NCBI GenBank assembly: GCA_964406665.1
Contig: CAYOSQ010000009.1
Location: 6,106-70,105 of the forward strand
DNA: 64,000 bases
Reading direction: 5' to 3'
DNA from: an uncultured Planctomycetia bacterium
Lineage (GTDB): Bacteria > Omnitrophota > Gorgyraeia > VGKH01 > JBHPFN01
Shown: positions 1,811-21,786 of the stretch, one piece after another
Layout: each line of letters starts with the position of its first letter
How positions within the stretch are numbered: position 1 is the first letter of the stretch
Position numbers and translations under genes: made by a program
Notes under the pieces: model-generated
Database searches by the model: none
The model's input: the letters and a program-made list of their open reading frames with translations, nothing else
Told to the model about the DNA's origin: nothing

Positions 1811-1931
1811 AAAATCTTGACAAAAATTATAATAGTAGTTATAATTTAAACAAATTCTACAGTGTTGTATTTTAAGATTGAACAAAGGCGTTCTTAGTCA
1901 AGGACGTCTTTTGTTTTAGTTTGAGGTTAGA

Positions 1932-2070: not shown

Positions 2071-3657
2071 ATGAATCTGCAAAGACCAAATGCAAATGAT
2101 GTAACACAGACAGCGAATCGATCCAGGAATATTGCTCCTACTTCAGGACTTTGTACTCGCTGTATCGATGGTTGTCGCGGTAACTGTGAAGTATTCAAAG
2201 CTAGTTTTCGTGGCCGAGAGGTAATTTATCCAGGGCCGTTTGGAGAAATAACTGCCGGAGGAGATAAAGATTATCCGGTTGATTATTCGCATCTTAATAT
2301 TTTAGGTTATGCTATGGGAGCAAAGGGACTTCCTAAAGGAGTTAAAGGTGATCCTGATACTGCTATATTTCCTAAAGTAGATACTGAGACTGAATATGGT
2401 TGGAAAGATAAAGTAAAAATGGCAATTCCTGCATTTACCGGCGCTTTAGGTTCTACTGAAATCGCTAGAAAGAACTGGGAACATTTTGCCATCGGTGCTG
2501 CTATTTCGGGCGTAACGCTTGTCTGCGGAGAGAATGTCTGTGGTATAGATCCTGCATTAGAATTGGATTCTAAGGGAATGATTAAAAAAGCACCTGATAT
2601 GGATAGAAGGATTGAGACCTACCGTAAGTTTCACCAAGGATACGGAGAAATTCTTGTTCAGATGAATGTTGAAGATACTAGGCTTGGTGTTGCTGAGTAT
2701 GTTAGTAAAAAGCATAAGCTAAAGACTATCGAGCTTAAGTGGGGCCAAGGAGCAAAATGTATCGGAGGAGAAATTAAAGTTAAATCTTTAGAGAGAGCGT
2801 TGGAACTCAAAAAACGCGGATACATTGTAACACCTGATCCTACGCTTAAATCAGTTAAGCAGGCGTATAAGGCAGGAGCAATTAAAGAGTTCGAACGTCA
2901 TTCTCGCCTAGGGTTTGTTACTGAGGAAGATTTCTTCAAGGAAATTAAGCGTTTAAGAAATTTAGGTTTTGAGCGCATTACATTAAAGACCGGCGCCTAT
3001 CCTATGAGAGAATTGGCAATGGCGATTAAGTGGAGTGCTGAAGCTAAGATCGACCTTCTAACCATTGACGGTGCTCCGGGTGGAACAGGCATGAGTCCAT
3101 GGCGCATGATGGAAGAATGGGGACTTCCTACGTTCTATCTTCAGTCTTTAACTCATGAAATCTGTGAGAAGCTATCCAAAAAAGGTGTGAAGCTTCCTGA
3201 TATTGCTATTGCAGGAGGATTTTCTACCGAGGATCATATCTTCAAAGTATTATCAATGGGTGCTCCATATGTTAAATCTGTATGTATGGGGAGAGCCTTT
3301 ATGATTCCTGGTATGGTTGGTAAGAATATTGGATACTGGATTGAAGGAAAAGATCTTCCTAATACAGTTTCTCGTTTTGGTAAAAAACCAGAAGAGATCT
3401 TTGTTTGTTACAAAGAGCTTGAAGAGAAATACGGTAAGAGAATAAAAGAGATTCCTTTAGGTGCTATAGGAATTTATAGTTTCTCTCAGAAGTTAAGAGT
3501 AGGTCTGCAGCAGTTAATGGCAGGAACGAGAAACTTTAGTCTTCCGTCTATTTCTCGTAAAGATGTTGCCTGTCTTACCCAAGAGGCAGCTAAGATCTCT
3601 GGCATTCCTTATATTATGGATGCATATCGAGAAGAAGCAAATAAGGTATTGAAGTAA
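2071..3657 (+). CDS. Glutamate synthase family protein (archaeal-type GltB domain 2, FMN/Fe-S catalytic domain, COG0069-like)
   Basis: The N-terminal Cys cluster CTRCIDGCRGNCEV is followed by a GltB FMN-domain-like sequence. I prefer the ATG at 2071, which has a GGAGG RBS, over the track start at 2047, which lies inside the leader hairpin. Confidence 0.7.
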   Translation: MNLQRPNANDVTQTANRSRNIAPTSGLCTRCIDGCRGNCEVFKASFRGREVIYPGPFGEITAGGDKDYPVDYSHLNILGYAMGAKGLPKGVKGDPDTAIFPKVDTETEYGWKDKVKMAIPAFTGALGSTEIARKNWEHFAIGAAISGVTLVCGENVCGIDPALELDSKGMIKKAPDMDRRIETYRKFHQGYGEILVQMNVEDTRLGVAEYVSKKHKLKTIELKWGQGAKCIGGEIKVKSLERALELKKRGYIVTPDPTLKSVKQAYKAGAIKEFERHSRLGFVTEEDFFKEIKRLRNLGFERITLKTGAYPMRELAMAIKWSAEAKIDLLTIDGAPGGTGMSPWRMMEEWGLPTFYLQSLTHEICEKLSKKGVKLPDIAIAGGFSTEDHIFKVLSMGAPYVKSVCMGRAFMIPGMVGKNIGYWIEGKDLPNTVSRFGKKPEEIFVCYKELEEKYGKRIKEIPLGAIGIYSFSQKLRVGLQQLMAGTRNFSLPSISRKDVACLTQEAAKISGIPYIMDAYREEANKVLK

Positions 3658-3690
3658 GAAAAGACAAGAAGAAATTCTTGTGTGGTTTAT

Positions 3691-5716: not shown

Positions 5717-6514
5717 ATGAGAAGATCAAAAATAAATTTTATTGTTTTAGCAATAGTTGTTTCAGTGTTTCTTGCTCTTCCTATATATGCTGTTGAAGTA
5801 AATGATCAGGAAGTAAATATTTCTGTTTCGCAAGTTTTTGTTTCAAGATATATCTGGCGAGGGCAGGATCTTTATGCACAAAATGATGCAGCTTATCAAC
5901 CCAGTATTGATATATCTGCTCCCGGGTTTTTATTTGGGACAGATGTAGGTTTGAATATCTGGGGGTCGTTTCCGTTGTCAGATGGCCACGAAGACGGCGA
6001 AGAGCTTGATTATACCTTGAGTTTTTCCAAAGATTTCTTTGATGGCCTGGTAAGTATATCAGAGGGTTACACCTATTTTGACTATCCTAATACATCAGAT
6101 ACTGCAGATGTGAGTGAACCTTGGGTAAACATTACGCTTAATGAGATTCCTAAACTTCCAATTCCCATTTCAATGTCAGTGTTTATGGGATATGATTTTG
6201 CAGCAGCTTCAGGTGGGCCTGATGAGGGCTGGTATTATTCCTGGGGTTTTGCTGGGGATATTGATTTACCTGAGTGGGAAATCTTCCAGGAAGATCAAGT
6301 AGTCTCTTGTAGTATTACTAATTGGGGCAATGACGGTGTTGCTGACCTTAAGCCCAGCACACTTTATGCAACTGATTTTTCGTTTTCAACCTCATATGCA
6401 TTTGGTGATATTAGTGTATCTCCTAGCTTAAATTATACTATGAACCATGAGGAAGCGATCAATTCAGGGGATAGTGAAATTTGGACCGGGATAGAAATCA
6501 GTTATGTATTCTAA
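5717..6514 (+). CDS. Exported hypothetical protein, possibly an outer-membrane beta-barrel, upstream of amtB
   Basis: There is an AAGGAG RBS. The signal peptide is MRRSKINFIVLAIVVSVFLALPIYA. The protein is rich in aromatic/Gly beta-strand-like segments and ends in a C-terminal Phe (..ISYVF). Confidence 0.5.
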   Translation: MRRSKINFIVLAIVVSVFLALPIYAVEVNDQEVNISVSQVFVSRYIWRGQDLYAQNDAAYQPSIDISAPGFLFGTDVGLNIWGSFPLSDGHEDGEELDYTLSFSKDFFDGLVSISEGYTYFDYPNTSDTADVSEPWVNITLNEIPKLPIPISMSVFMGYDFAAASGGPDEGWYYSWGFAGDIDLPEWEIFQEDQVVSCSITNWGNDGVADLKPSTLYATDFSFSTSYAFGDISVSPSLNYTMNHEEAINSGDSEIWTGIEISYVF

Positions 6515-6576
6515 TAACCCCAAAGGGGTTATTGGCCCGCGAACTAATTACTAGCGGGCTTATAAAGGAGGCAACG

Positions 6577-7950
6577 ATGTTGAGACGCTTATTTAGATAT
6601 AGATTTATCAAACTTGTTTTATTAGGAATTGTGGCAGTTAGCATAATGCTGGGAACTGCTTTTGCTGATGATGCTACAGCTGAAAGTAATTCCGTAGCAA
6701 TTAATACAGTTTGGACCCTCATTGCAGCATTTCTGGTTTTCTTTATGCAGGCTGGATTTGCTATGGTTGAGACTGGTTTCACCAGGGCAAAAAACGCAGC
6801 CAATATTATGATGAAGAACTTAATGGATTTTAGTGTAGGTTCTATCGCCTATTGGCTGATTGGATTTGGAATTATGTTTGGCACATCTGCGTGGGGGCTT
6901 TTCGGTAAGGACGGGTTTTTCTTAAGCTCAGGTGATCCTTCCACCGGTGAAGGTTTATGGCAGTTTGCATTTTGGATGTTTCAGACTGTGTTTGCAGCTA
7001 CCGCTGCTACTATAGTTTCTGGTGCAATGGCAGAGAGAACAAAATTTTCTGCCTACCTTTGGTATAGTGTTTTTATAACCGCTCTTATTTATCCTGTTGT
7101 AGGTCATTGGATTTGGGGTGGTGGATGGCTTTCCGCCAAGGGAATGATTGATTTTGCTGGTTCTACAGTGGTTCATTCGGTTGGTGGCTGGGCTGCGCTT
7201 GCAGGTGCAATTTTGCTGGGTCCTCGCTTGGGTAAATATAATAAGGACGGTTCTTCTCGGGCTATCCCAGGGCACAATATTCCTTTGGCAGCTTTGGGTG
7301 TGTTTATTTTATGGTTTGGATGGTTTGGCTTTAATGCCGGAAGTACGACAGCAGGCACTAATTTAAGCATAGCTACAATAGCGGTTACAACTAACTTAGC
7401 AGCAGCAGCTGGAGCTATAGCTGCGATGTCTACTGTTTGGATTCAATTTAAGAAACCTGATACTAGTATGGCTTTAAATGGTGCTTTGGCTGGACTCGTT
7501 GCGATAACGGCTCCTTGTGCAAGCGTTTCTCCGTTGAGTGCAATTATTATAGGAGCTCTTGCTGGAGTTGTTGTTGTTTTCAGTGTTGAGTTTATCGATA
7601 AGGTACTGAAGGTTGATGATCCTGTGGGTGCTATATCGGTGCATGGTGTTTGCGGTGCCTTTGGAACATTGTGTGCTGGTCTGTTTGCAGAAGCTGCTTA
7701 TGGTGAAGCCAGCGGCGTGGGAGCAGTTAATGGTCTTTTCTTCGGCGGTGGATGGAGCCAGTTTTTAACACAGCTAACAGGTGTTGTTTCAGTATTTTTA
7801 TGGGTATTTACATCTGCATTTATTTTGTTTTTCGTAGTTAAGAAGACAGTAGGTTTGAGAGCTTCAGATGAAGAGCAACTCAAAGGGCTTGATATTAGCG
7901 AGCATGGGATGGAGTCTTATTCTGGTTTTCAAATCTTTACAAATGAATAA
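6577..7950 (+). CDS. amtB: Ammonium transporter AmtB
   Basis: The RBS AAGGAGG is followed by the ATG at 6577. It has a signal-like N-terminus and typical Amt family TM motifs (FAMVETGF, VHSVGGWAALAGAILLGPRLGKY). The track start at 6481 overlaps the upstream gene and is rejected. Confidence 0.9.
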   Translation: MLRRLFRYRFIKLVLLGIVAVSIMLGTAFADDATAESNSVAINTVWTLIAAFLVFFMQAGFAMVETGFTRAKNAANIMMKNLMDFSVGSIAYWLIGFGIMFGTSAWGLFGKDGFFLSSGDPSTGEGLWQFAFWMFQTVFAATAATIVSGAMAERTKFSAYLWYSVFITALIYPVVGHWIWGGGWLSAKGMIDFAGSTVVHSVGGWAALAGAILLGPRLGKYNKDGSSRAIPGHNIPLAALGVFILWFGWFGFNAGSTTAGTNLSIATIAVTTNLAAAAGAIAAMSTVWIQFKKPDTSMALNGALAGLVAITAPCASVSPLSAIIIGALAGVVVVFSVEFIDKVLKVDDPVGAISVHGVCGAFGTLCAGLFAEAAYGEASGVGAVNGLFFGGGWSQFLTQLTGVVSVFLWVFTSAFILFFVVKKTVGLRASDEEQLKGLDISEHGMESYSGFQIFTNE

Positions 7951-8023
7951 ATAAAGTATAATGCTTTGCTCAGGGTGTTGTAGTTCAATGCCCTGAGCAA
8001 TAAGAAAATAAAGGAGAAATAAA

Positions 8024-8365
8024 ATGAAACTAATTGTTGCGATGATACAGCCTCATAAATTGCCGGATGTAAAGAAAGCACTCTATGGTGCTGAGGTTTT
8101 TAAGATGACTGTGACAAATGCATTGGGTTGTGGCCAGCAGAGAGGTTATACTGAGACATATCGTGGTGTAGAACAAGAGGTAAATCTTCTAAAGAAGATT
8201 CGAGTCGAGGTCGCGGTCAATGATGATTTTGTTGAACCAACAATTGAGGCGGTTGTTAAAGGTGCCCGCACAGGTAATATTGGAGATGGAAAAATATTTG
8301 TATTAGATTTACCCGAATGCATACGCATAAGAACAGGGGAAAGGGGGAATGAGGCTATCGGATAG
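8024..8365 (+). CDS. glnK: Nitrogen regulatory protein P-II (GlnK/GlnB)
   Basis: The 113-aa protein is [20 protein letters not shown]...GYTETYRG..., including the T-loop (RGxE), and it immediately follows amtB. A hairpin GCTCAGGG...CCCTGAGC lies in the 73-nt spacer. Confidence 0.9.
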
Positions 8366-8376
8366 TAAATTTTCCC

Positions 8377-8540
8377 CGCCCTTTTGGTAGGGTGGGATAA
8401 AATAAAAAAGTCACCAAAAGGGCGGGATCACGTTTACGAGCAGTCAAGCAGCTCGTAAAGTGCTGCTTGTGCTGTAATTTTGCGCATATGATTTACGTCG
8501 TTTAAGGAGACTCCGTAAATCATGCGCTCATTTAAGGAGG
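8377..8540 (+). promoter_or_regulatory. Structured 5' leader (copy B of the nitrogen-gene leader motif) upstream of glnA
   Basis: The GC hairpin is CCGCCCTTTTGGT (8377-8389) pairing with ACCAAAAGGGCGG (8413-8425). Mutually exclusive hairpins follow: TTTACGAG/CTCGTAAA and AAGCAGC/GCTGCTT. The final hairpin is GCGCAtaTGATTTACG (8482-8497) pairing with CGTAAATCAtGCGC (8514-8527). It is followed by TCATTTAAGGAGG and the ATG at 8547. The sequence and architecture parallel 1932-2070. Confidence 0.5.
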
Positions 8541-8546
8541 AATAAA

Positions 8547-9884
8547 ATGGCTAAACAATTAACAAAGAAACAAAAGATTTTAAAGTTAGTAAAAGAAAAA
8601 GATGTAAAATTTATCAGGTTATGGTTTACGGATGTTCTTGGACAGGTTAAGAGTTTCTCAATTACCGATAGCGAATTGGAAAATGCGCTAGAAAGCGGCA
8701 TGGGCTTTGATGGTTCTTCAATTACAGGCTATCAGGATATTGAAGAGTCGGATATGATTGCTATGCCTGATCCTGATACCTTTGCGATTCTTCCCTGGAG
8801 GCCAAAGGAAAAGGCAGTGGCGCGTATGATCTGTGATGTGTTAACTCCTGATAGAAAGCCTTACGAAGGAGATCCGCGTTATGTATTAAAGAGAGCTTTA
8901 GAGCGGGCTAAAAAAATGGGATATGATCATTTCTACCTAGGGCCGGAGCTGGAGTTTTTCTATTTTAAAAAGGACGATGGTATTGAGATATTGGATAAGG
9001 GTGGATATTTTGATCTAACTACTCTCGATGTTGCCAGTGATCTAAGACGTGAGACTGTTTTAGCACTTGAGCAGATGGGAATTAATATTGAATATTCTCA
9101 TCACGAGGTTGCACCTTCACAGCATGAAGTAGATATGCGCTATAAAGATGCCTTGATTATGGCTGACAGCGTAATTACTTACAGGGTTGTGGTTAAAGAG
9201 ATCGCTAGTAAGTTCGGTGTGTATGCTACTTTTATGCCAAAGCCAATCTTCGGAGAGAACGGTTCAGGCATGCATGTACATCAGTCACTTTTTAAGGGAT
9301 CAAGGAATGCATTCTTTGATGTAAAGTCAAAAGACTTTTTATCAGACACAGCACGCAGATATATTGCAGGTCTCCTAAAGCATTCAAAAGAGATTTGTTC
9401 TATTTTTGCTCAGACAACTAACTCTTATAAGAGATTAGTTCCTGGATACGAGGCACCAGTTTACATTGCCTGGAGCCGTAGAAACAGAAGTGCGTTGGTC
9501 AGAGTTCCTCTGTATCATCCGGGACAAGAGAAGGCAACACGCTGTGAGTTTAGAGCCTGTGATCCGGCTTGTAATCCGTATCTTACCTTTGCCGCAATGT
9601 TACACGCTGGGTTAGATGGGATTGAAAAAGGATATAAAGTTCCTGCCCCTATGGAGCAGAATCTTTATCACTTAAGCGATACCGAGAGAAAGAAAAAAGG
9701 TATCCAGACATTGCCGGATAGCTTGGGACATGCAATTTCAATGACTGAGGAAAGTAATCTTGTAAGAAAAACATTGGGAGATCATATATTTCCTAGGTTT
9801 GTTGAGTTAAAGAAAAAAGAATGGGATGAATACAGAATTCAGGTTCCGCAGCATGAGCTTGATAAATATCTTTCTATTTTGTAA
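8547..9884 (+). CDS. glnA: Glutamine synthetase, type I-alpha-like (445 aa)
   Basis: The catalytic motifs are complete: GFDGSS, KPIFGENGSGMHVHQS, NPY and AWSRRNRSALVRVP. It has a GGAGG RBS. Confidence 0.9.
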   Translation: MAKQLTKKQKILKLVKEKDVKFIRLWFTDVLGQVKSFSITDSELENALESGMGFDGSSITGYQDIEESDMIAMPDPDTFAILPWRPKEKAVARMICDVLTPDRKPYEGDPRYVLKRALERAKKMGYDHFYLGPELEFFYFKKDDGIEILDKGGYFDLTTLDVASDLRRETVLALEQMGINIEYSHHEVAPSQHEVDMRYKDALIMADSVITYRVVVKEIASKFGVYATFMPKPIFGENGSGMHVHQSLFKGSRNAFFDVKSKDFLSDTARRYIAGLLKHSKEICSIFAQTTNSYKRLVPGYEAPVYIAWSRRNRSALVRVPLYHPGQEKATRCEFRACDPACNPYLTFAAMLHAGLDGIEKGYKVPAPMEQNLYHLSDTERKKKGIQTLPDSLGHAISMTEESNLVRKTLGDHIFPRFVELKKKEWDEYRIQVPQHELDKYLSIL

Positions 9885-10401: not shown

Positions 10402-13400
10402 ATGAATAATCATTTTCCCAAAAAACAAGGATTGTACGATCCGTGCTTCGAGCATGATGCTTGCGGCGTAGGATTTATTTGCAATATCAAAGGCAATAAG
10501 TCTAACGAGATCGTCAATCAGGGTTTGAATATTTTAAAAAGATTAGCCCACCGCGGAGCTGTGGGAGCAGATCCTGAAACCGGTGATGGCGCAGGAATCT
10601 TAATTCAAACGCCGCATGCATTTTTCCAAAAAATTGCGCAACGTGAAGGAATTACTTTACCTGATGAAGGCTCATATGGAACTGGATTAATATTTTTACC
10701 CCCTGATAAAAAAGAGCGTGAGTTCTGTAAAGATGTATTCAAAAAGACAATTGAACAAGATGATCATACACTTCTTGGTTGGCGCAAGGTTCCAGTTGAT
10801 GATTCCTGTATCGGAAAGACTGCCAAAGCTACACAGCCAGTGATCGAGCAAATATTCATTAAGAAAAATGAGGCATTCAAAGAACAGCTTGCCTTTGAGC
10901 GCAGGCTCTATGTAATCAGAAGAATTGTTGAAAACACAATCAGTGCTTCAGATTTAAAACAAAAATCTTACTTTTATATTACAAATATTTCTTCGCGTAC
11001 ATTTTTGTATAAGGGTCTGCTTATGACCAATCAACTTGAGGATTTCTTTGTTGATCTTAAAGATAAAGATTTAAAGAGTGCTTTGTGCCTGGTGCACTCT
11101 CGTTATAGCACCAATACATTTCCTACCTGGGATTTATCTCAGCCGTTTCGTTTTCTAGCACACAACGGAGAGATTAATACTTTACGCGGCAACATCAATT
11201 GGATGAGGGCGAAAGAAGATTTATTATTTAGTCCTTTATTTGGAGATGATATTGAGCGGATAAAACCAATTGTAGTTCCCGGGGGAAGTGATTCTGCAAG
11301 CATTGATAACGCCTTTGAATTATTAGTGCTCTCAGGTAGATCTTTGCCTCACGTAATGATGATGCTTATTCCTTCAGCCTGGGAACAAAATCATTTGATG
11401 GATGAAAAGCAGAGAAAGTTTTATCAATATCATACTTGTTTAATGGAGCCTTGGGATGGGCCAGCTGCGATTGCATTTACTGATGGCTTGCGAATCGGCG
11501 CAGTGCTTGATAGAAACGGTCTTCGACCTGCCCGCTACATTGTCACTAAGCAAGATATGGTGGTTATGGCATCTGAGGTGGGAGTACTTGATATTAAGCC
11601 AGAAGACATTGCCTATTCTGGCAGGCTTGAGCCGGGAAAAATTTTCTTCATCGATACAAAAGAGGGTCGAATTATTGATGATAAAGAGATTAAAGATACA
11701 GTCTCAAGTCAGTGGCCTTATGATAAATGGCTTAAAGATTGTTTGATTGAGATAGAAAAATTACCTGCTCCGCAAGAAAAACAAAAACCTTCAGATGATG
11801 TTCTTACACAGTTGAAAGCCTTTGGTTATGCGCGTGAAGACCTAAGTGTTTTACTTGGACCTATGGCAGAAACCGGTCAAGAGCCAACAGGTTCAATGGG
11901 TAATGATACGCCACATGCAGTTTTGTCAAAGAGGCCGCAGCTACTTTATAGTTATTTTAAACAATTGTTTGCTCAGGTTACTAATCCTGCGATCGATCCT
12001 ATTCGGGAAGATCTGGTAATGAGTCTGGAATGTTATATGGGTTCTCGCAGGAATCTGCTTGATGAAACAGCTCAGCATTGTCATAAGGTGCGTTTAAAGC
12101 AGCCGGTTTTAACTAATAAAGAATTAGCAAAATTAAAATATATAAATGAAAGAGGTTTTAAAACCAGAACAATATCTCTACTATTTAAAGCAAAAGAAGA
12201 GAATGCATTCTCCCAAGCCCTGGAACGTATATCTAAAGAAGCTAAGGCAGCAATACAGGAAGGATGTTCTTTTGTGGTATTAAGTGACCGCGGTGTAAAC
12301 AAAGATTTTGCAGCCCTGCCAGCATTACTTGCAATTGGTACAGTGCATCAATATCTGGTTAAAGATACTTCGCGCTCCCAAATTGCAATTATTTTAGAAA
12401 GTGCAGAACCTAGAGAAGTACATCACTTTGCCGTGCTTTTTGGTTTTGGCGTAGGTTGTGTTAATCCTTATCTGGCATATGAATCTTTAGAATATCTTAT
12501 TAAAGAAAAAGATTTATCCCTTGATTTTAAAACAGCACAGAAAAATTACATCAAGGCAATAAATAAAGGGGTATTAAAGGTACTTTCAAAAATGGGAATA
12601 TCTACTTTACAGAGTTATCGCGGTGCCCAGATATTTGAAGCCTTGGGTTTAAATGATGAGATTATTGAGAAGTGTTTTAAAGGCACAGTATCGCGTATTG
12701 GCGGTGCAGGGATTGATGTCATAGAAAAAGAAACAATGCTTCGCCACCAAGAGGCGTTTCCCCTTCGGGGAAACGACGACGTGGGGTTTCTCCCCACAGG
12801 TGGGGTTTATCAGTGGAAAAGAGACGGAGAGTTTCATCTTTGGAACCCTGAGAGCATATCAGCTTTGCAGGATGCCACTAGGTTTAATGATTACCAGCTT
12901 TATAAAAAATTCGCTAGGTTTTTTAATGATCAATCAAGCCAGCCCACAACTTTGCGTAGCCTTCTGGAATTTAAGCAAACCAAACCTATTTCTATTGATA
13001 AAGTAGAGCCGGTTGAGAGTATATTCAAGCGTTTTGCTACAGGGGCAATGAGCTTTGGTTCAATCTCTCGTGGTGCACACGAGACCTTAGCCATTGCTAT
13101 GAATAGAATCGGGGGAAAATCCAATACAGGAGAAGGCGGGGAAGACCCAGAGCGTTTTAAAACATTGCCCAGTGGAGATTCTGCCCGCAGCGCTATAAAG
13201 CAGGTGGCATCCGGAAGATTCGGTGCTACAACTAATTATTTAGTAAATGCAGATGAAATTCAAATAAAGATTGCTCAGGGTGCTAAGCCCGGTGAAGGCG
13301 GCCAACTTCCCGGGCATAAGGTAAGTGAAATTATTGCCCGGACAAGACACACTACACCCGGGGTTACTTTAATTTCACCTCCGCCGCATCATGATATTTA

Positions 13401-14928
13401 TTCAATTGAAGATTTAGCCCAGCTTATCTTTGATTTAAAGAATGCCAATCCTAAAGCACGCATAAGTGTAAAGCTGGTTTCAGAAATAGGTGTGGGAACA
13501 GTTGCTGCAGGCGTGGCCAAAGGCCACGCAGACATGATTTTAATCTCTGGTGCAGACGGCGGAACAGGTGCGTCACCGAGAAGTTCTATTATGTATGCGG
13601 GCCTGCCTTGGGAATTAGGTCTTGCGGAGACTCATCAGACATTAGTTTTAAATAATTTACGTAGCCGTGTGCGTCTGCAAACCGATGGTCAGATGCGTAC
13701 CGGCCGAGATGTTGCCATCGCTGCAATTTTAGGCGCTGAGGAGTTTGGTTTTTGTACCTGTGCATTAGTTATTTCCGGATGTGTTATGTTAAGACATTGC
13801 CATCTGAATAATTGTTCTGTGGGAGTTGCCACTCAGGATGAAGTCTTAGAGAAAAGATTCAAAGGAAAGCCTGAGTACGTAGTAAATTATTTTCATTTTG
13901 TTGCCCAGGAATTAAGAGAGGTTATGGCACAGCTGGGAATAAGGCGCGTGGAAGATTTAGTGGGTAGAACAGATTTAATTAAAGTAAATCAGGAGATTGT
14001 CCCCTGGAAGGCAAAAGGGATTGATTATTCCCGGATTCTTTACAAGCCCAAAGTAGATAAGAAAGTTGGGGTTTATTGCACGCAGGCGCAGGATCACGGA
14101 ATCGAAAGTGTGTTGGATAAAAAATTAATTAAGTCTGCTAAGCCGGCGTTGGAAAAATCCCAGCCGGTAACAATTGAATCAGAAATAAAAAATAATAACC
14201 GCACCACAGGAACAATGTTAAGCGGTGAGGTTTGTAAAAAGTTTGGTGAGCAGGGCCTGCCTGAAGATACTATAAGATGTAAATTTACCGGAGTGGCTGG
14301 GCAGAGTTTTGGCGCCTGGTTGGCTAAGGGTGTGACTTTTGAACTCGAAGGTATGGCTAATGATTATATCGGAAAAGGTATCTTCGGTGGAAAGATTATT
14401 GTTTACCCCAGTTCAAAAGCCGATTATTCACCGCAGGATAATATTATTATAGGTAATACTACCTTTTACGGTGCAATAACAGGCCAGGCATATATCCGGG
14501 GATTAGCCGGAGAAAGATTTTGCATCCGTAATTCCGGATTACACGCAGTTGTTGAAGGTGTTGGCGATCACGGTTGTGAATATATGACTGGGGGCAGAGT
14601 GGTAGTATTAGGTAAAACCGGGAGGAATTTTGCCGCCGGCATGTCCGGAGGTATTGCTTATGTGTATGATACAGATAATACATTTAAAGAAAAATGCAAT
14701 ATGGGAATGGTCGAGCTAGAAGAGCTTTTGGAGGAAGATAGAGAGACAATTATTAGTTTGGTCAATAACCATTACAACTATACAAAGAGCGAAGTTGCAA
14801 AGAATGTTTTAGATAATCATACAAGCGAATTAGAAAAATTCGTCAAAGTTATGCCTATTGAATATAAGCGGGTGTTAGAAGGTTTGAAAGTGAAGAAGTC
14901 AAAATCAGATGAGGTTTCTGACGGTTAA
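10402..14928 (+). CDS. gltB: Glutamate synthase large subunit (1508 aa; GATase, FMN and GXGXG domains)
   Basis: The N-terminus CGVGFI is the Ntn amidotransferase signature. The central FMN domain and the C-terminal GXGXG domain are present along the full length. Confidence 0.95.
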   Translation: MNNHFPKKQGLYDPCFEHDACGVGFICNIKGNKSNEIVNQGLNILKRLAHRGAVGADPETGDGAGILIQTPHAFFQKIAQREGITLPDEGSYGTGLIFLPPDKKEREFCKDVFKKTIEQDDHTLLGWRKVPVDDSCIGKTAKATQPVIEQIFIKKNEAFKEQLAFERRLYVIRRIVENTISASDLKQKSYFYITNISSRTFLYKGLLMTNQLEDFFVDLKDKDLKSALCLVHSRYSTNTFPTWDLSQPFRFLAHNGEINTLRGNINWMRAKEDLLFSPLFGDDIERIKPIVVPGGSDSASIDNAFELLVLSGRSLPHVMMMLIPSAWEQNHLMDEKQRKFYQYHTCLMEPWDGPAAIAFTDGLRIGAVLDRNGLRPARYIVTKQDMVVMASEVGVLDIKPEDIAYSGRLEPGKIFFIDTKEGRIIDDKEIKDTVSSQWPYDKWLKDCLIEIEKLPAPQEKQKPSDDVLTQLKAFGYAREDLSVLLGPMAETGQEPTGSMGNDTPHAVLSKRPQLLYSYFKQLFAQVTNPAIDPIREDLVMSLECYMGSRRNLLDETAQHCHKVRLKQPVLTNKELAKLKYINERGFKTRTISLLFKAKEENAFSQALERISKEAKAAIQEGCSFVVLSDRGVNKDFAALPALLAIGTVHQYLVKDTSRSQIAIILESAEPREVHHFAVLFGFGVGCVNPYLAYESLEYLIKEKDLSLDFKTAQKNYIKAINKGVLKVLSKMGISTLQSYRGAQIFEALGLNDEIIEKCFKGTVSRIGGAGIDVIEKETMLRHQEAFPLRGNDDVGFLPTGGVYQWKRDGEFHLWNPESISALQDATRFNDYQLYKKFARFFNDQSSQPTTLRSLLEFKQTKPISIDKVEPVESIFKRFATGAMSFGSISRGAHETLAIAMNRIGGKSNTGEGGEDPERFKTLPSGDSARSAIKQVASGRFGATTNYLVNADEIQIKIAQGAKPGEGGQLPGHKVSEIIARTRHTTPGVTLISPPPHHDIYSIEDLAQLIFDLKNANPKARISVKLVSEIGVGTVAAGVAKGHADMILISGADGGTGASPRSSIMYAGLPWELGLAETHQTLVLNNLRSRVRLQTDGQMRTGRDVAIAAILGAEEFGFCTCALVISGCVMLRHCHLNNCSVGVATQDEVLEKRFKGKPEYVVNYFHFVAQELREVMAQLGIRRVEDLVGRTDLIKVNQEIVPWKAKGIDYSRILYKPKVDKKVGVYCTQAQDHGIESVLDKKLIKSAKPALEKSQPVTIESEIKNNNRTTGTMLSGEVCKKFGEQGLPEDTIRCKFTGVAGQSFGAWLAKGVTFELEGMANDYIGKGIFGGKIIVYPSSKADYSPQDNIIIGNTTFYGAITGQAYIRGLAGERFCIRNSGLHAVVEGVGDHGCEYMTGGRVVVLGKTGRNFAAGMSGGIAYVYDTDNTFKEKCNMGMVELEELLEEDRETIISLVNNHYNYTKSEVAKNVLDNHTSELEKFVKVMPIEYKRVLEGLKVKKSKSDEVSDG

Positions 14929-14939
14929 GGGAATGAACA

Positions 14940-16367
14940 ATGGCTGATCCTAGAGGTTTCCTAAAATTTAAAAGAAAAAAATCTGCCTACCGTCCTGTAA
15001 AAGAACGTGTGGCTGATTATAAAGAAGCCAGTATTCTGCGCCTTGAAGATAGTTCTAAAGAACAGGCCTCACGCTGTATGGATTGCGGTACGCCATTTTG
15101 CCATTGGGGCTGTCCTATCGGTAACCATATCCCCGAGTGGAATAACCTTATGTTTCAGGGAAAGTGGGAAAAGGCATTTCAGCTGCTTGATGCTACAAAT
15201 AATATGCCGGAGATTACCGGCAGGCTTTGCCCTGCATTGTGTGAATATGCCTGTGTCTTAGGAATTAATGATGATGCTATAACCATAAGAGAAAATGAGC
15301 TCGATGTTATTGAGCTTGCATTTAAACATGGTTTGATTAAACCCAGGCCGCCGAAGCAACGTACAGGCAAACGTGTTGCAGTTGTAGGTTCTGGGCCGGC
15401 AGGATTATCTTGTGCAGCCCAGCTTAACAAAGCCGGACACAATGTTGTTGTATTTGAGAAGTCTGCCAAAGTCGGCGGAATTTTGAGATACGGCATTCCT
15501 GATTTTAAACTGGATAAAAAAATAATCGATAGGCGTCTTAAGCTTTGGCAGAAAGAAGGCATTGAATTCAAGACTTCTGTTGAGGTAGGCGAAGATTATC
15601 CTAGCAAAAAACTCTTAGATGAATTTGATGCTGTGTGTTTAACAGGTGGCAGTTCTGTGCCACGAGATCTTAATATCGAGGGAAGGGAATTAGCCGGCAT
15701 TCATTTTGCTATGGATTATTTGGTTCAATCAAACCAACGCGTGGCAGGTGAAAAGATCCCTAAGGATAATCTTATTGATGCCCAGGATAAAAAAGTTGTG
15801 ATTATCGGCGGTGGAGATACGGGCGCAGATTGTGTGGGGACTGCCAATAGGCAGGGTGCCAGCAAGATAGTGCAACTTGAAGTATTGCCTAAGCCGCCAG
15901 TCGATCGCACGGATGATTTCCCTTGGCCAACATACCCAATGTTGCTTAAAACCTCTACTTCACATGAAGAAGGCGCAGATAGACAATGGAGTATTCTGAC
16001 TAAGAAGTTTTCCGGTGAGGGTGTTAAGGTTGAAAAACTTCATTGTATTCAAGTTGAGTTTGGGCCAGAAAAGGATGCACACAATCGCCCTATTATGAAA
16101 GAGGTAAAGGGCAGTGAGTTTGAGATTGAGGCAGACTTAGTTATTCTGGCAGTTGGATTTATTCATCCCCAACATGGAGGCCTGCTTAATCAGCTTGGGT
16201 TAGAGTTTGATGTTAGGGGTAATGTAAAGACAGACGAAGATTTTCAAACTTCCAAAAAGAAAATCTTCTGTGCAGGAGATATGAGAAGAGGCCAATCACT
16301 TATTGTTTGGGCGGTGTATGAAGGCCGCGAGGCTGCTAGGGCGATAGATGGTTATCTCAGCAAGTAG
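14940..16367 (+). CDS. gltD: Glutamate synthase small subunit (NADPH-dependent)
   Basis: Two Cys clusters are present (CMDCGTPFC, CPALCEYAC). Two Rossmann folds are present (VAVVGSGPAGLSCA, VVIIGGGDTGADC). Confidence 0.9.
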   Translation: MADPRGFLKFKRKKSAYRPVKERVADYKEASILRLEDSSKEQASRCMDCGTPFCHWGCPIGNHIPEWNNLMFQGKWEKAFQLLDATNNMPEITGRLCPALCEYACVLGINDDAITIRENELDVIELAFKHGLIKPRPPKQRTGKRVAVVGSGPAGLSCAAQLNKAGHNVVVFEKSAKVGGILRYGIPDFKLDKKIIDRRLKLWQKEGIEFKTSVEVGEDYPSKKLLDEFDAVCLTGGSSVPRDLNIEGRELAGIHFAMDYLVQSNQRVAGEKIPKDNLIDAQDKKVVIIGGGDTGADCVGTANRQGASKIVQLEVLPKPPVDRTDDFPWPTYPMLLKTSTSHEEGADRQWSILTKKFSGEGVKVEKLHCIQVEFGPEKDAHNRPIMKEVKGSEFEIEADLVILAVGFIHPQHGGLLNQLGLEFDVRGNVKTDEDFQTSKKKIFCAGDMRRGQSLIVWAVYEGREAARAIDGYLSK

Positions 16368-16959: not shown

Positions 16960-16990
16960 TTGACAAATGATATAACATATGTTATATATT
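16960..16990 (+). promoter_or_regulatory. Promoter with an embedded 18-bp perfect palindrome (candidate operator for the HTH-Fic protein)
   Basis: TTGACA (16960-16965) is followed by a 17-nt spacer and TATATA. ATATAACATATGTTATAT (16970-16987) lies in the spacer/-10 region. An extra half-site GATATAACAT lies at 16938-16947. Confidence 0.5.
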
Positions 16991-17002
16991 ATATAGATAA
17001 AT

Positions 17003-17929
17003 ATGGGAAACTATATAAGACAAATTAAACAGATCAAAGAGAAAACCGGCTGGACTCAAGGTCAATTAGCTGATGAGCTGGGCGTTTCTTTTGCTACTAT
17101 TAATCGTTGGCTCAATAAACACGCAAAGCCGCAGCCTTCACGCCTTAAATTAATTACAAGAATATTCCAGGATATGGTGGGGATTCAGCCTGTCCCGCAA
17201 AAGGAATTAGAGCGGCTTATTAAGAATATTGAATCTTTAAAGAAGAAGTTTAAAGATATAAGAAAATGTATCGTTGGAGATCAAGACCTTCTTGGTGATT
17301 TTTTAATCGAGCTTACCTATAATAGCAATGCCATTGAAGGTAGCCGTATGAGCAAGGCTAATACCAAGGCCATAATTCAGGATAAATCCCTGATTAAAGA
17401 TAGAACCCTTATTGAGCATCTGGAGGTAAAAAATCACGAATCAGTTTTAAGAAAAGTATTAACCGGCGAGATTAAAGGTCCTATTGCAGAAAGCCTTATT
17501 CTTAAGATGCATGCTCAGCTTATGCAGGGAATAATTGCTGATGCTGGATCATATCGCAAAAACTGGATTAAGATTACTGGAGTAGATTTGGTCTTGCCAG
17601 CTCCTGAAGATATAAAAGAAGAAATGGCTGACTTTTTTAAAAAGATAAATAGGCCAGCTGGTGATTCTTTGCAACATATTGCTAGGATGCATTATGAATT
17701 TGAGGCTATCCATCCATTTTCTGACGGAAACGGGAGGTTAGGCAGGCTGATTATAACTATTATGTTGCTGGATAAAAACTTTGCACCGGCAATAGTAAAG
17801 ATAGAAGACAGAAGCCGCTACTATGAAGTTTTGGATTATGCCAATAGAAAAGAAGGTACTTATTTAGTTAAGTTTATTCTTGAAAGTGTCTTGTCAGGAT
17901 TTAGATTGTTAAAATTGCGACAGCCGTAG
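17003..17929 (+). CDS. Fic-family protein with an N-terminal XRE-type HTH
   Basis: The HTH is GWTQGQLADELGVSFATINRWLN. The Fic motif is HPFSDGNGRLGRL. Confidence 0.85.
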   Translation: MGNYIRQIKQIKEKTGWTQGQLADELGVSFATINRWLNKHAKPQPSRLKLITRIFQDMVGIQPVPQKELERLIKNIESLKKKFKDIRKCIVGDQDLLGDFLIELTYNSNAIEGSRMSKANTKAIIQDKSLIKDRTLIEHLEVKNHESVLRKVLTGEIKGPIAESLILKMHAQLMQGIIADAGSYRKNWIKITGVDLVLPAPEDIKEEMADFFKKINRPAGDSLQHIARMHYEFEAIHPFSDGNGRLGRLIITIMLLDKNFAPAIVKIEDRSRYYEVLDYANRKEGTYLVKFILESVLSGFRLLKLRQP

Positions 17930-18214
17930 ATAATTTTTACTATAAAGAAGGTGGATGGGTGGTATAGGGGGAAGGGCGCATAAATTGCAAATGTAGATGT
18001 ATCTTCTAAAATCTCTATACCATGTGATGTGGCTAATACTTAAAAAAAGTACAATATATTGTATTCTTCTACTTGACAAATAAGAGAATTTGTTGTAAGA
18101 TTAACACTCATCATAGAAGCAAACCCCACGTTATCATTAGCAACACCGTATTTATTTACTGCAATTATATTATTATTTCATATCAAGTTATAAGCTTTCA
18201 AAAGGAGATCATGT

Positions 18215-19000
18215 ATGGACAAGACATGCTTAGTTTATATTCACGGCGTACAGCCGGATTTGAAGACGGAAGCTCGTGGTTATTCTAAGGAGTTTCATAA
18301 AAAGATATTAGAAGAGCTGCAGAGGTTAGGCAAGGATGTATCTAAGGTAAGGCGTTTCGAAGTAAGTTGGTCGAATATTACTATTGGATTTAAAAGAAAA
18401 TTAGCGCAGTTACAATTTGATGCAAATCCTGAATTAGGATTTAAAAGAAGACAAGGTTTTCTAAGCGGCGCTTTGCGTAATTTTATTTATCCGGCAGTTA
18501 TTGATATTCTTTTTTATGTAAAAAACAAAGGTAGCGCTAATGCACCGGGTGAAATGGTAATTTTAGAGAGACTTCATAATGCTGTAAAGAAAGCAAAGGC
18601 TAAAGGGTTTAAGAAAGTTGTTATCTTTGCACATTCCTTAGGCACTGTCGCAGCTTATGATTATGTATTCCGTTTTCGGGAAAAATACGCCTTTCCAAAA
18701 AATCTGGAATTAACCGCCTTGGTTACGTTCGGTAGCCCGATATCGCTTTTTGCATCCGGTATGGGGCATCCTATGTCTAGCAAAATCAAGCGACCGAAAA
18801 ACGTCAAGAAATGGTTAAATCTTTGGGATCCGCATGATGGTGTGTCCGGAAGGTGCGAACCACATTTTCCCAAAAATTTTGCTAAAGGATTTTTAAAAGA
18901 TGTGCTAGTTGATACTGGCTTAACTCCCCTAAGAGCTCATCAACGCTATTGGAGTCATAAAAGAGTAATTCGAAAAATGGCAGAGGAGTTAGCGAGGTAG
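18215..19000 (+). CDS. Alpha/beta-hydrolase-fold protein (lipase/esterase-like, DUF676/PGAP1-like architecture)
   Basis: The N-terminus VYIHG is present. The nucleophile elbow is FAHSLGT (GxSxG). The downstream sequence FGSPI is present. An AAAGGAG RBS precedes it. Confidence 0.6.
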   Translation: MDKTCLVYIHGVQPDLKTEARGYSKEFHKKILEELQRLGKDVSKVRRFEVSWSNITIGFKRKLAQLQFDANPELGFKRRQGFLSGALRNFIYPAVIDILFYVKNKGSANAPGEMVILERLHNAVKKAKAKGFKKVVIFAHSLGTVAAYDYVFRFREKYAFPKNLELTALVTFGSPISLFASGMGHPMSSKIKRPKNVKKWLNLWDPHDGVSGRCEPHFPKNFAKGFLKDVLVDTGLTPLRAHQRYWSHKRVIRKMAEELAR

Positions 19001-19019
19001 AGAGAAAGAAGGTAAGTAC

Positions 19020-19871
19020 ATGGAAAACAGCGATAAACAGAAAGAGCAGATAGAAAATGAAATTAATAAGGCATTGCAATCTGGTGTCGGTCCAAAAGCT
19101 GCTAGAATAGCTTTGGCATTTTTAAGCGGTTTAGTTCCTGGAGTAGGAGGAGTTTTTGGTGCTGGAGCAGGGGCGTGGTCAGAATCAGAGCAGGAGAGAA
19201 TCAATAAAATATTCGCCTCTTGGTTAAAGCTTCAAGAAGATGAGATAAAAGAGATTGGTATTACGTTAATGGAAGTTATGATGCGAATTGATAAAGATGA
19301 TGAAAGAATTCAAGAAAGAATACAAAGCCCAGAATATTTGAAATTAATAAAGAAATGCTTCAGGGATTGGAGTGCGGCAGAAAGTGAAGAAAAAAGAATT
19401 CTAATTAGAAATCTTCTATGTAATGCCGCAGGCGGAGAGAAAATATGTGGGGATGACATTATTCGGATGTTCATTGAATGGATAGGCCGTTATACAGAGA
19501 AGCATTTCTTGATTGTAAAGGAAATATATAAAAATGAAGGTATAACTAGGTTAGGAATATGGCAGAACTTATATGGTGAACCAGAAAGGGAAGATTCTCC
19601 AGAGGCTGATTTGTATAAAACGCTGATGCATGATTTAAGTGTCGGACATGTAATAAGGCAACATAGAGATAAAGACTACATGGGAAATTTCTTGAAGAAA
19701 GCAAAACAGAGAAGTTCGGGCTCTAGAATGAAATCAGCATTTGATGATGAGGAAGAGTATGAATTGACAGGGCTAGGTAAATGGTTTATTCATTATACTA
19801 TGAACGAGATGATTCCTCGCATAACTAATAATGAGCAGCCTTCGAATGAAAAAAAGGAGGAAAATAATTGA
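19020..19871 (+). CDS. Hypothetical protein with an N-terminal Gly-zipper-like hydrophobic segment
   Basis: AARIALAFLSGLVPGVGGVFGAGAGAW is followed by a charged, helical remainder. No family was recognised. It starts 20 nt after the hydrolase gene. Confidence 0.5.
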   Translation: MENSDKQKEQIENEINKALQSGVGPKAARIALAFLSGLVPGVGGVFGAGAGAWSESEQERINKIFASWLKLQEDEIKEIGITLMEVMMRIDKDDERIQERIQSPEYLKLIKKCFRDWSAAESEEKRILIRNLLCNAAGGEKICGDDIIRMFIEWIGRYTEKHFLIVKEIYKNEGITRLGIWQNLYGEPEREDSPEADLYKTLMHDLSVGHVIRQHRDKDYMGNFLKKAKQRSSGSRMKSAFDDEEEYELTGLGKWFIHYTMNEMIPRITNNEQPSNEKKEENN

Positions 19872-20569
19872 CTAGAAAAGTTATACTCAAATCACAAGCT
19901 AACCAAGTCCTTGAGATAATTAAAAAATTTGGTTTAATTCCTGCAGAGTTTAAATGGTTTGAAAAAACAACCAAGCTTAATAGTACAAAGGACGTTGTTT
20001 CTTCGCTTGTGCATTTACCAACGGGATACTATTTTTTGTTTGAATATGATAGAGATGGAAAACATTGGTCTGAGTATTCGCCTGGGGGATCTGTAGCTGT
20101 GGTAACATTAAAATACACTGCAAGCTGGGGAGTGCAATTAGGTAATGTTATAGATTGGGCTCAGTCGTTAAAACGTGAAGTTGAATCTCCAAATTTGTGG
20201 GATGCGATATCTCAGGAAAGGCGGATACTGGAGGTTGTCAATGAACCAATTTTTTATAATGAGCTCTTTAATGTTGAAGAGCAGAAAAAGATAAATGCAA
20301 ATTTAGAAGAAATAAAACAATACTTATTAACGACGACGGATTTATCTAAAGAGCAAGTTCAATTAGTAGATAAGCAGTTTGATTATTTTAAGAATTCTTT
20401 GCAAAGGATTGGGCGAAAAGATTGGTTAATGATGTTTACTGGATTTTTAGTTAGCAAAATTCTTACACTTGGGTTACAATCTGATACTGCTAAAGAATTA
20501 TTTAGATTTACTTCAAATGCTTTAAGTTGGCTGATTGCAAAAGCTGATACTTTACATTTAGGAGGGTAA
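19868..20569 (+). CDS. Hypothetical protein, translationally coupled to the upstream gene
   Basis: TTGA start/stop overlap with 19020..19871. No recognisable motifs. Confidence 0.45.
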   Translation: MTRKVILKSQANQVLEIIKKFGLIPAEFKWFEKTTKLNSTKDVVSSLVHLPTGYYFLFEYDRDGKHWSEYSPGGSVAVVTLKYTASWGVQLGNVIDWAQSLKREVESPNLWDAISQERRILEVVNEPIFYNELFNVEEQKKINANLEEIKQYLLTTTDLSKEQVQLVDKQFDYFKNSLQRIGRKDWLMMFTGFLVSKILTLGLQSDTAKELFRFTSNALSWLIAKADTLHLGG

Positions 20570-20615
20570 AAGATAGAATTCCGGATAGAAAACTAAGAAG
20601 CAAAGCTAAGCAAAG

Positions 20616-20761
20616 CTTAGGACCGGTTCTCGTTAAGTATTTATCATATAAAGAGTTTTGAATAAATCCCTGAAGGGACGGCTTCGCTCGGTGTCACTTA
20701 AGGAACATTTTAGTAGCAAGTTAATGGTATGGTAGTAGTTAGATAGATCCGGTCCTTTAAG
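20616..20761. repeat. Imperfect inverted repeat pair flanking ~115 bp (MITE-like or large hairpin) at the distal end of the accessory operon
   Basis: CTTAGGACCGGTTCT (20616-20630) is matched in reverse by AGATCCGGTCCTTTAAG (20745-20761), with 11 of 12 core positions complementary. Confidence 0.35.
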
Positions 20762-20817
20762 TTTTTGCTTTAAGTTTTTATGTGCTTGAAGGTCAAAGAA
20801 AGAAGGAGAAATTTATT

Positions 20818-21399: not shown

Positions 21400-21416
21400 G
21401 CCCTAATTGAATTACA

Positions 21417-21613
21417 GAATTCCGGGGACACACCCACGAGTGCTGCTCACTAAAGTTCGCAAGCTCGGGTACGTACTCTGTAGGAAACACCAGCTCACGA
21501 TGTTCGCTGGTGCGACGAGGCCTTTGGCCTCGAACGAAGCTAGGAAATCAATCGTCGGGTATGTACTCTGTGATTGATAAAGGGGGCGCGGTCCGATTAG
21601 GGCCGCGCCCCCT
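21417..21613 (+). repeat. Composite intergenic structured repeat (family modules 1 and 2 plus a GC-rich hairpin)
   Basis: GAATTCCGGGGACAC is a half-palindrome. Module 1 is CACCCaCGAGTGCTGCTCACTAAAGTTCGCAAGCTCGGGTACGTACTCTGT (21431-21481). Module 2 is AACACCAGC..GCTGGTGCGaCGAGGCCtttGGCCTCGAACGAAG..AATCAATCG (21486-21553). A GGGGGCGCGG...CCGCGCCCCC hairpin lies at 21581-21613. Near-identical modules occur at 30184-30241 and 31456-31595. Confidence 0.7.
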
Positions 21614-21786
21614 GATTGTTTTCCTACGGTTTCGGCGAACAAGCCGTAATTATAAACTGACACGGAAGCTGAAGTTAGCAAGGGAATAATATTAATAAAG
21701 ACTAAATTTATAATATGTTTGCTTTAAAAAAATCAAATGATAGAATATTCTTTAGAGGGATGTTTTGAAATAGGGGAGATAGAAAT

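Follow-up and report, generated by a model that had tools for sequence, protein, structure and literature searches.

A probable mosaic of accessory genes in an uncultured Omnitrophota bacterium, with a widespread gene family that may belong to the Abi-alpha superfamily

We analyzed a 64,000-nucleotide (nt) stretch of contig CAYOSQ010000009.1 from an uncultured Omnitrophota bacterium (hereafter the window). Between 17.0 and 20.6 kb, four co-oriented open reading frames (ORFs) encode a Fic protein with a helix-turn-helix (HTH), a predicted alpha/beta-hydrolase, and two proteins that we name by the first position of their genes, 19020 and 19868. An earlier note on this DNA had proposed that the three genes downstream of the Fic gene form one toxin or phage-defense module. 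Our best reading, to which we assign a probability of about 0.6, is that the region is a small mosaic, made up of mutually independent accessory genes that lie head to tail in one population, with no dedicated multigene system, and that the 19020 gene is Abi-alpha-like. Two members of this islet would then be of the defense-candidate type, namely, the HTH-Fic gene and the Abi-alpha-like 19020 gene. What would be new is the 19020 family itself, a well-delimited and widespread variant or sister of a mechanistically unsolved abortive-infection (Abi) family, so far found in uncultured bacteria.

Genomic association of the four genes

We examined the contexts of 19020 homologs in five long contigs from metagenomes or metagenome-assembled genomes (MAGs), in 61 loci from GTDB species-representative genomes, and in three IMG/VR contigs. 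Using tblastn, we searched with the window proteins through 66 loci outside the window population (five metagenome loci, 60 further genome loci, and the closest homolog), each with up to ~10 kb of flanking sequence. The 19020 homolog was recovered in 66 of 66 loci, and a homolog of the hydrolase or the 19868 protein was found near it in none. The gene lists of one further JGI locus and of the three IMG/VR loci likewise contained no hydrolase-like or 19868-like ORF. Results were the same from the other side: no 19020 or 19868 homolog was found near the hydrolase homologs of loci L018, L019/L020, and L094, and the other window genes were absent from all eight loci with a 19868 homolog. Even the closest relatives stood apart. 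The closest 19020 homolog (72% identity; locus L096) is preceded by two small unrelated ORFs and has no hydrolase, and the closest hydrolase homolog (66%; L094) has no 19020 gene.

We found the full order of Fic, hydrolase, 19020, and 19868 in near-identical contigs of the window population (at least seven contigs from several samples) and nowhere else. Because synteny was absent outside that population, the three downstream genes appear to have separate histories and to have been juxtaposed locally. Their families also differ in size, with 1,248 proteins for 19020, 22 for the hydrolase, and 5 for 19868. The earlier note had put forward co-occurrence in other genomes as a check on its single module and had named a lack of synteny elsewhere as grounds for refuting it; the trio is not syntenic in any of the other loci examined, and the module does not survive that comparison. 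What stands is the description of closely packed accessory genes, whereas a functional link between a lipase-like hydrolase and a protein with a membrane segment received no comparative support. As a three-gene system the finding dissolves, which spares effort on a combination limited to one population.

A locus in another Omnitrophota MAG (L038) carries a 19020 homolog (58% identity) and a Fic homolog (37%) about 5 kb apart (1901-2728 and 7817-8665). It is the sole other locus with relatives of two of the four window genes.

Base composition did not point to a foreign origin in any convincing way, the 19868 gene being a possible exception. The stretch had been called markedly AT-richer than its flanks, and a composition like that of the rest of the genome had been named as a sign against the module. 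When we ran the suggested check of guanine-plus-cytosine (GC) content against 46 window ORFs (mean GC of 0.386, standard deviation of 0.031), per-gene deviations were small and the genes largely resembled the rest. Specifically, GC z-scores were -0.37 for the Fic gene, +0.15 for the hydrolase gene, -0.63 for 19020, and -1.60 for 19868, and the corresponding z-scores for GC at third codon positions were +0.42, +0.09, -0.44, and -1.60. One-kilobase windows over the stretch had a GC content of 0.35 to 0.37, compared with ~0.39 overall. This dip owes partly to two AT-rich spacers and is equalled or exceeded elsewhere, for example, at 54 to 64 kb. We therefore did not accept composition as an argument for a foreign origin, since z-scores lay within about one standard deviation for all but the 19868 gene. 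We also found no tRNA, integrase, or flanking direct repeats around the stretch that would mark an insertion.

The 19020 family and its possible relation to Abi-alpha

The 19020 gene (19020-19871, + strand, 283 amino acids [aa]) belongs to a large family. We identified 1,248 homologs at an E value of ≤1e-3, the best 120 of which (own protein excluded) were 57 to 72% identical to the window protein. At 50% identity the family comprised 700 clusters at E ≤ 1e-3, and 391 of these at E ≤ 1e-10. Members are 260 to 300 aa long, and all of their source names are "hypothetical." The window protein had no significant match in Pfam, NCBIfam, PADLOC, or PHROGs. The 61 genome loci all come from MAGs, represent at least 11 phyla, and encode proteins with 41 to 69% identity to the window protein. 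The hosts include Planctomycetota, Verrucomicrobiota, Elusimicrobiota, Acidobacteriota, Chloroflexota, Bacteroidota/Ignavibacteriota, Bdellovibrionota, Binatota, Omnitrophota, and Gammaproteobacteria, as well as Saccharibacteria, Doudnabacteria, Parcubacteria, and Minisyncoccia, which are lineages of the candidate phyla radiation (CPR). The nearest relatives lie outside the phylum of the window, which argues for horizontal spread. Of the elements of the stretch, the 19020 gene alone is widely distributed; it is a stand-alone, horizontally spread gene of ~270 aa.

The genes next to 19020 homologs were diverse. Neighboring ORFs were predicted with a crude longest-ORF caller, so that some small ones may be spurious, and only 17 small clusters formed among the 311 ORFs obtained. 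At least seven loci have flanking genes on the opposite strand on both sides, and the 19020 gene can therefore act as a single unit. The company of several homologs is characteristic of variable regions that carry defense genes or mobile elements. One locus contains a type I restriction-modification (R-M) system and an integrase; another contains BrxB and BrxC of a BREX system together with an SNF2 helicase; a third contains GmrSD, a SocA_Panacea toxin-antitoxin pair, a resolvase, and a type I R-M system; and a fourth contains AAA_15/21 genes. Among 109 direct neighbors we identified PDC-S54 (six cases), HEPN (two cases), REase_I, UzuA, PDC-S19, methyltransferases, recombinases, and resolvases. 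Three homologs were located in prophage-like IMG/VR contigs.

PDC-S54 was the recurrent direct neighbor of 19020-family genes (L003 5355-6008, L040 9351-9995, L068 9413-9982, L073 9406-9975, L031 10827-11450, and L001 6862-8106). One of these six ORFs is full length (414 aa, 1e-132), and the other five cover the N-terminal half of the profile (189 to 217 aa), lying upstream or downstream of the 19020-type gene at gaps of -8 to +10 nt. There may thus exist a two-gene variant in which a 19020-type protein replaces the C-terminal, nuclease-like half of PDC-S54, and the recurrent pairing is a hint of modular exchange between sensor and effector. In contrast to these loci, the window lacks PDC-S54, and its 19868 protein is unrelated to it.

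A distant 19020 homolog was also present in a gut phage contig (L093; MT836525.1), where it occupies 75-938 on the - strand and lies beside, and divergent from, a gene at 1423-2136 (+) that encodes a TIR domain (TIR_2, 5e-22). The hhalign probability for this homolog was 93.6%. When used as a query against phage records, this ORF matched itself alone.

To describe the protein, we used an AlphaFold2 model based on an alignment (A4) of 56 more diverse family members, with a mean predicted local distance difference test (pLDDT) score of 85.4 and a predicted template modeling (pTM) score of 0.77. It replaced a poor first model built from 25 close homologs (pLDDT of 61). The model contains a helix at residues 2-20, a low-confidence, Gly-rich hydrophobic segment at 22-53, a long helix at 55-89, a helical bundle at 95-138, and a winged-helix domain at 145-262 (19452-19805, +), over most of which pLDDT was 94 to 98. 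The helical bundle bears the block FRDWSAAESEEKR..RNLL.NAA, which is invariant among 25 close members (mean column identity, 65%), and an N-terminal segment, A..L....P..GG.......WSE, is also conserved in this set. Using Foldseek, we recovered MarR and PadR folds alone for the winged helix (E ≥ 0.19). The model as a whole had no structural match, and profile searches of the PDB returned nothing significant.

The Gly-rich hydrophobic segment (residues 27-53; 19098-19178, +) is putatively membrane inserting or oligomerizing. It had been described as a glycine-zipper-like membrane segment, and the N-terminal sequence LAFLSGLVPGVGGVFGAGAGAW on which that description was based is indeed found in the translation. 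The zipper-like motif is present: the segment contains G37xxxG41 and G43xxxG47xxxG51 with a central P40, and A33, L35, P40, W53, and S54 are invariant among the 25 close members, with G43 and G44 nearly so. Its Kyte-Doolittle mean over 19 residues is 1.85 (family median, 1.63), and the hydrophobicity maximum falls within the first 60 residues in 82% of the 56 members. We consider the segment plausibly, if borderline, membrane active.

The candidate relative of the family is Abi-alpha, protein EF2833 of Enterococcus faecalis V583 prophage 6, whose Pfam family is Abi_alpha (PF14337, formerly DUF4393). EF2833 has been described as a 272-aa abortive-infection protein, encoded by one prophage gene, whose action leads to premature lysis (PMC6356687), and this phenotype is known for EF2833 alone. 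How it works was still called unknown in 2025 (10.1101/2025.10.23.684294). Among relatives of the window protein, residues 91-256 of P0057 matched the Abi_alpha profile (positions 15-193 of 196) with 25.2 bits. Three further matches were collinear and nearly full length (P0119, 21.4 bits; P0038, 21.0 bits; and the ORF of the L093 gut phage contig, 19.2 bits), and 10 of the 25 close family members had an Abi_alpha match at E ≤ 1. For scale, a true Abi_alpha member in phage phiNM1 (8828-9685) scored 153.6 bits, and seven phage homologs of it were gathered. Using hhalign, we compared A4 with these eight phage proteins and obtained 214 collinear columns (P = 0.008), at a probability of only 4.9%. 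The alignment paired EEKR..RNLL.NAA with e..iR.mFA.LiA, FidWId.Y.E.HF with sFVEIIKQmSP.DA, and YeLTeLG.qF with I.it.fGk.F.

Several candidates were set aside. Another phiNM1 ORF (1402-2334) is not a DUF4393 protein, the true member being the one at 8828-9685. Matches of family members to TerB, DHH_CID, and C19orf12 were short and weak and were not used. P0057, used as a bridge to annotated Abi_alpha proteins, gave one weak match in phage records and none in plasmids.

Beyond these matches to the Pfam model, the two families share the form of a single stand-alone gene of ~270 to 285 aa, a mostly helical protein, and positions in prophages or defense islands. They differ in their hosts and in their N-termini. 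The bona fide Abi-alpha members that we found come from Firmicutes and Moraxella phages, whereas the 19020 family occurs in uncultured Planctomycetota, Acidobacteriota, CPR, Omnitrophota, and others, and its Gly-rich N-terminus, IP..GG....WSE, was not seen in phiNM1-type proteins. From these comparisons, membership of the 19020 family in the Abi-alpha superfamily is likely but unproven. The abortive-infection flavor attributed to the three genes as a module is accordingly retained for the 19020 protein alone, where neighbors elsewhere and the subthreshold Abi_alpha matches back it, and is given up for the module.

The family is a clean defense candidate: it has ~700 clusters at 50% identity, is strikingly conserved in at least 11 phyla, falls outside the curated models of Pfam, NCBIfam, PADLOC, and PHROGs, and occurs in defense islands. 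If it is a relative of Abi-alpha, it would extend a defense protein of unsolved mechanism to environmental and CPR bacteria. Abi-alpha has reportedly been tested so far in Enterococcus alone, and its relatives are said to be known mainly from Gram-positive prophages. The conserved N-terminal and bundle motifs, together with the winged helix, would offer handles on Abi-alpha-type action.

Alternative readings and a possible mechanism

The gene anatomy, the domain layout of the model, the neighborhoods of homologs, and the one characterized relative together suggest how a 19020 protein would most likely act, namely, in the manner of Abi-alpha, each step being conditional on that anatomy and context. 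The protein would be constitutively present and latent, its helical body and winged helix keeping it inactive. The same two parts would detect a cue from the phage, which could be nucleic acid or protein. The N-terminal Gly-rich segment would then insert or oligomerize in the cytoplasmic membrane, and the outcome would be membrane collapse or depolarization, holin-like mistiming, or premature lysis before phage progeny mature. We can tentatively extend this to a broader proposal, which we think possible though on balance doubtful: that the 19020 family, as a deep sister branch of Abi-alpha, represents an undescribed single-gene effector against phages that is very widespread among uncultured bacteria and extends to CPR/Patescibacteria. 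In such an effector a winged-helix sensor would control an N-terminal Gly-zipper membrane disruptor. It could also be joined to exchangeable partners, such as the N-terminal domain of PDC-S54, where it would stand in for the C-terminal, nuclease-like half of PDC-S54 itself, and the overlap with the 19868 gene in the window would be one such pairing.

A number of observations weigh against the reading of an accessory mosaic with an Abi-alpha-like 19020 gene. None of the Abi_alpha matches of the relatives reaches the 29-bit Pfam cutoff, no Abi_alpha match at E ≤ 1 was obtained for the window protein itself, and the low hhalign probability obtained with eight phage proteins became 0.8% when the phiNM1 protein was used by itself. 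As a transmembrane helix the hydrophobic segment is borderline, being ~25 residues long with a central proline and a pLDDT of ~50 in the model. The counts of defense neighbors are raw tallies, and some neighbors are housekeeping genes (ribonucleotide reductase, ribosomal protein S6, and GH92). We found no 19020 homolog in 72,556 plasmids and, in 50,697 phage records, one weak match, the distant homolog of the L093 contig. Identity of ~60% across phyla is unusually high for a defense gene and might instead reflect some other role under tighter constraint. Finally, the 19-nt spacer between the hydrolase and 19020 genes and the 4-nt overlap between 19020 and 19868 leave room for functional coupling that evolved locally in the window, and in this organism the hydrolase may cooperate with the 19020 protein.

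That close spacing on one strand is also what would be expected of a recent, lineage-specific three-component defense or toxin operon, with the hydrolase serving as phospholipase effector, the 19020 protein as its partner in the membrane, and the 19868 protein providing regulation or immunity. Such an operon would fit the promoter-like site and palindrome that the hydrolase gene has upstream of it, the stability of the gene order in the contigs of the population, and the position of the closest hydrolase homolog between an AAA_14/DUF4143 ATPase and an ORF that looks SIR2-like. However, no two of the three families were found together outside the population in the loci examined, and other hydrolase homologs have as neighbors a DEAD helicase or genes for alpha-amylase and squalene synthase. 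Moreover, many genomes carry the 19020 gene as a monocistronic unit, and neither the hydrolase nor the 19868 protein has a PADLOC match. We consider this explanation improbable. A two-gene module, with the conserved 19020 protein as effector or adaptor and an exchangeable adjacent partner as sensor (the N-terminal domain of PDC-S54, HEPN, or here the 19868 protein), would explain why PDC-S54 is the direct neighbor of 6 of ~55 homologs, mostly as an N-terminal half nearly abutting the 19020-type gene, why two further homologs have HEPN neighbors, and why many others have same-strand neighbors at 0 to 100 nt; the overlap with the 19868 gene fits as well. Yet the neighbors are mostly unrelated to one another, the partner is upstream in some loci and downstream in others, and both neighbors can be on the opposite strand, as noted above. 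In addition, none of the eight loci with a 19868 homolog has a 19020 homolog, and proteins of the 19868 family bear no relation to the N-domain of PDC-S54, so that we regard such a module as unlikely.

The 19020 family could also be nonimmune, acting as a membrane-tethered winged-helix regulator or as a maintenance or exclusion factor that rides on integrative elements. The sole confident structural similarity, which is to DNA-binding winged helices of the MarR, PadR, and TubR type, would suit such a role, as would the recombinase, resolvase, and integrase genes nearby and a very high cross-phylum conservation, which is seen more often in the core machinery of mobile elements than in immune sensors, since these evolve fast. 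We nevertheless judge it improbable. There is no consistent mobile-element backbone around the gene, the plasmid collection contained no homolog, neither integrase nor tRNA nor repeats lie near the window copy, and the neighborhoods consist mainly of defense genes and not of conjugation or replication genes. The accessory mosaic with an Abi-alpha-like 19020 gene thus remains our preferred reading.

Companion genes and flanking sequence

The four ORFs follow gltB-gltD (10402-16367). The three genes downstream of the Fic gene were confirmed in the ORF list as closely packed and all on the + strand, and none of their products was assigned to a family, in agreement with the earlier note: no match exceeded a curated threshold in Pfam, NCBIfam, or PADLOC, and a PHROGs scan returned nothing at E < 0.01. 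The 4-nt TTGA overlap between 19020 and 19868 was likewise verified. The gap between the hydrolase and 19020 genes is indeed short, at 19 nt in place of the 20 nt first given. This spacing makes co-transcription plausible, as had been claimed for a single transcript, but promoter-like sites in the sequence are no commoner than in shuffles and lend that claim no support.

The Fic gene (17003-17929, +, 308 aa) encodes a protein with a clear Fic domain (Pfam Fic, 76.9 bits against a cutoff of 24) and an HTH (HTH_3, 41.1 bits), as anticipated. Its best solved relative is FICD, which is of the AMP-transferase type (3.5e-21), and its PADLOC matches are PDC-S04 (5e-41) and SoFic (6e-33). Because the catalytic motif HPFSDGNGRLGR (HPFxDGNGRxxR) and the inhibitory motif SNAIEG (SxxxEG) occur in the same chain, we classify it by sequence as a class II, FICD-like, auto-inhibited Fic protein of the AMP-transferase type. 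It resembles the PDC-S04/SoFic and FICD-type proteins in these matches and motifs and differs from them in its N-terminal XRE-type HTH and in its score for the NCBIfam SoFic equivalog (NF046030), which was not reached (47.8 bits against a cutoff of 550). The HTH-Fic protein is self-contained, of a known kind, and a candidate for single-gene defense. A perfect 18-bp palindrome, ATATAACATATGTTATAT, was read from the sequence at 16970-16987, between TTGACA (16961) and the Fic start codon. It occurs once in the window, with 0.01 chance matches expected. The palindromic operator ascribed to this gene is therefore present as a sequence, and its role as an autoregulatory operator for the HTH of the Fic protein is likely.

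The hydrolase gene (18215-19000, +, 261 aa) starts 285 nt downstream of the Fic gene. The YIHG start of its product was found in the translation, and the nucleophile elbow, which had been given as GHSLG, is in fact AHSLG (context F-A-H-S-L-G-T). Among 17 sequences of the family, H140, S141, D205, D208, and H242 are invariant and H10-G11 nearly so, and the protein has the elbow, Asp, His, and HG oxyanion features of a lipase-like alpha/beta-hydrolase. This conservation fits a functional Ser-Asp-His hydrolase, with a predicted triad of Ser141, Asp205 or Asp208, and His242 and an HG oxyanion motif. Matches to known families were faint. All Pfam scores were below cutoff (DDHD, 19.8 against 28.3 bits; DUF676, 18.8 against 20.3 bits), with weak matches also to Lipase_3 and LCAT. 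Precomputed Pfam annotation listed DDHD (PF02862) for seven homologs, "weak" where marked. The best result of a PDB profile search, the DDHD domain of PITPNM1/Nir2, was not significant (E = 0.06), and PADLOC gave no match.

The hydrolase family has 22 proteins among 5.8 billion clusters; the few that are named come mostly from Omnitrophota MAGs. It shares the elbow, the HG oxyanion motif, and the conserved Asp and His with serine lipases of the DDHD/PA-PLA1 and DUF676 types, and it differs from them in its subthreshold scores, its size as a 261-aa stand-alone bacterial protein, its ~22 members, and its lack of a fixed neighborhood. By these features it appears to be a small, lineage-restricted family of Ser-Asp-His alpha/beta-hydrolases, faintly DDHD- or lipase-like, and the window protein is probably an esterase or phospholipase with a role of its own. 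Homologs elsewhere are next to a DEAD helicase (L018) or alpha-amylase and squalene-synthase genes (L019/L020). In L094 the closest homolog lies between the AAA_14/DUF4143 ATPase gene and an ORF starting MKRVFILGAGASADL that looks SIR2-like (523-1779, 2024-2812, and 2930-3670), and the hydrolase family may therefore frequent defense-type neighborhoods as well.

The spacer 5' of the hydrolase gene contains a perfect 14-bp palindrome, TACAATATATTGTA (18049-18062), followed directly by a promoter-like site, TTGACA-17-TAAGAT (18073-18101, +). We treat the latter as a candidate only, since promoter-like sites are not enriched over shuffles. The palindrome differs from that upstream of the Fic gene, and a second regulator may therefore act at 18049-18101.

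The 19868 gene (19868-20569, +, 233 aa) begins with TTG, a start that is credible because it coincides with the first residue of the homologs and is preceded, at 8 nt, by AGGAGG. Its product is a rare stand-alone orphan with five homologs and eight more metagenome loci. The family has the motifs LKSQANQV, LKREVESPDLW, and GRKDW and a weakly hydrophobic C-terminal helix (best Kyte-Doolittle mean, 1.36). There was no match at threshold in Pfam, NCBIfam, or PADLOC, and a PDB profile search yielded nothing significant. We rejected the identification of this protein as PDC-S54, to which it had no PADLOC match at E ≤ 1 and an hhalign probability of 0.8% for the N-domain. At one locus (L085), a 19868 homolog (5887-6588) is followed by an HNH endonuclease gene (6782-7660; Pfam HNH, 3.3e-9), one hint that the orphan may also occur in conflict-type regions.

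Beyond the last gene, an imperfect long inverted repeat with a T-rich tract at its end occupies 20598-20785 (+) and occurs once in the window. Its predicted hairpin has a minimum free energy of -54.6 kcal/mol in RNAfold (z = -1.97), and 7 of 200 shuffles folded equally well. Rfam searches of the whole window at gathering thresholds, and of 16.3 to 21.9 kb at E ≤ 1, returned nothing usable, and the repeat is therefore not a known RNA. The hairpin could be a terminator or without function. An inverted repeat pair at 20616/20761 had been seen as the distal boundary of the stretch. It exists as an imperfect pair with an indel, and its arms pair in RNAfold, although it was absent from the output of our repeat search. 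Both arms are distal to the genes, so the pair does not bracket them.

Farther downstream, a noncoding stretch of ~380 nt (21400-21786), which had no Rfam match, contains a 17-nt direct repeat, TCGGGTA(C/T)GTACTCTGT, at 21465 and 21555, as well as a strong, GC-rich hairpin terminator with 14 bp at 21581-21613. The stretch may encode a small RNA or a leader.

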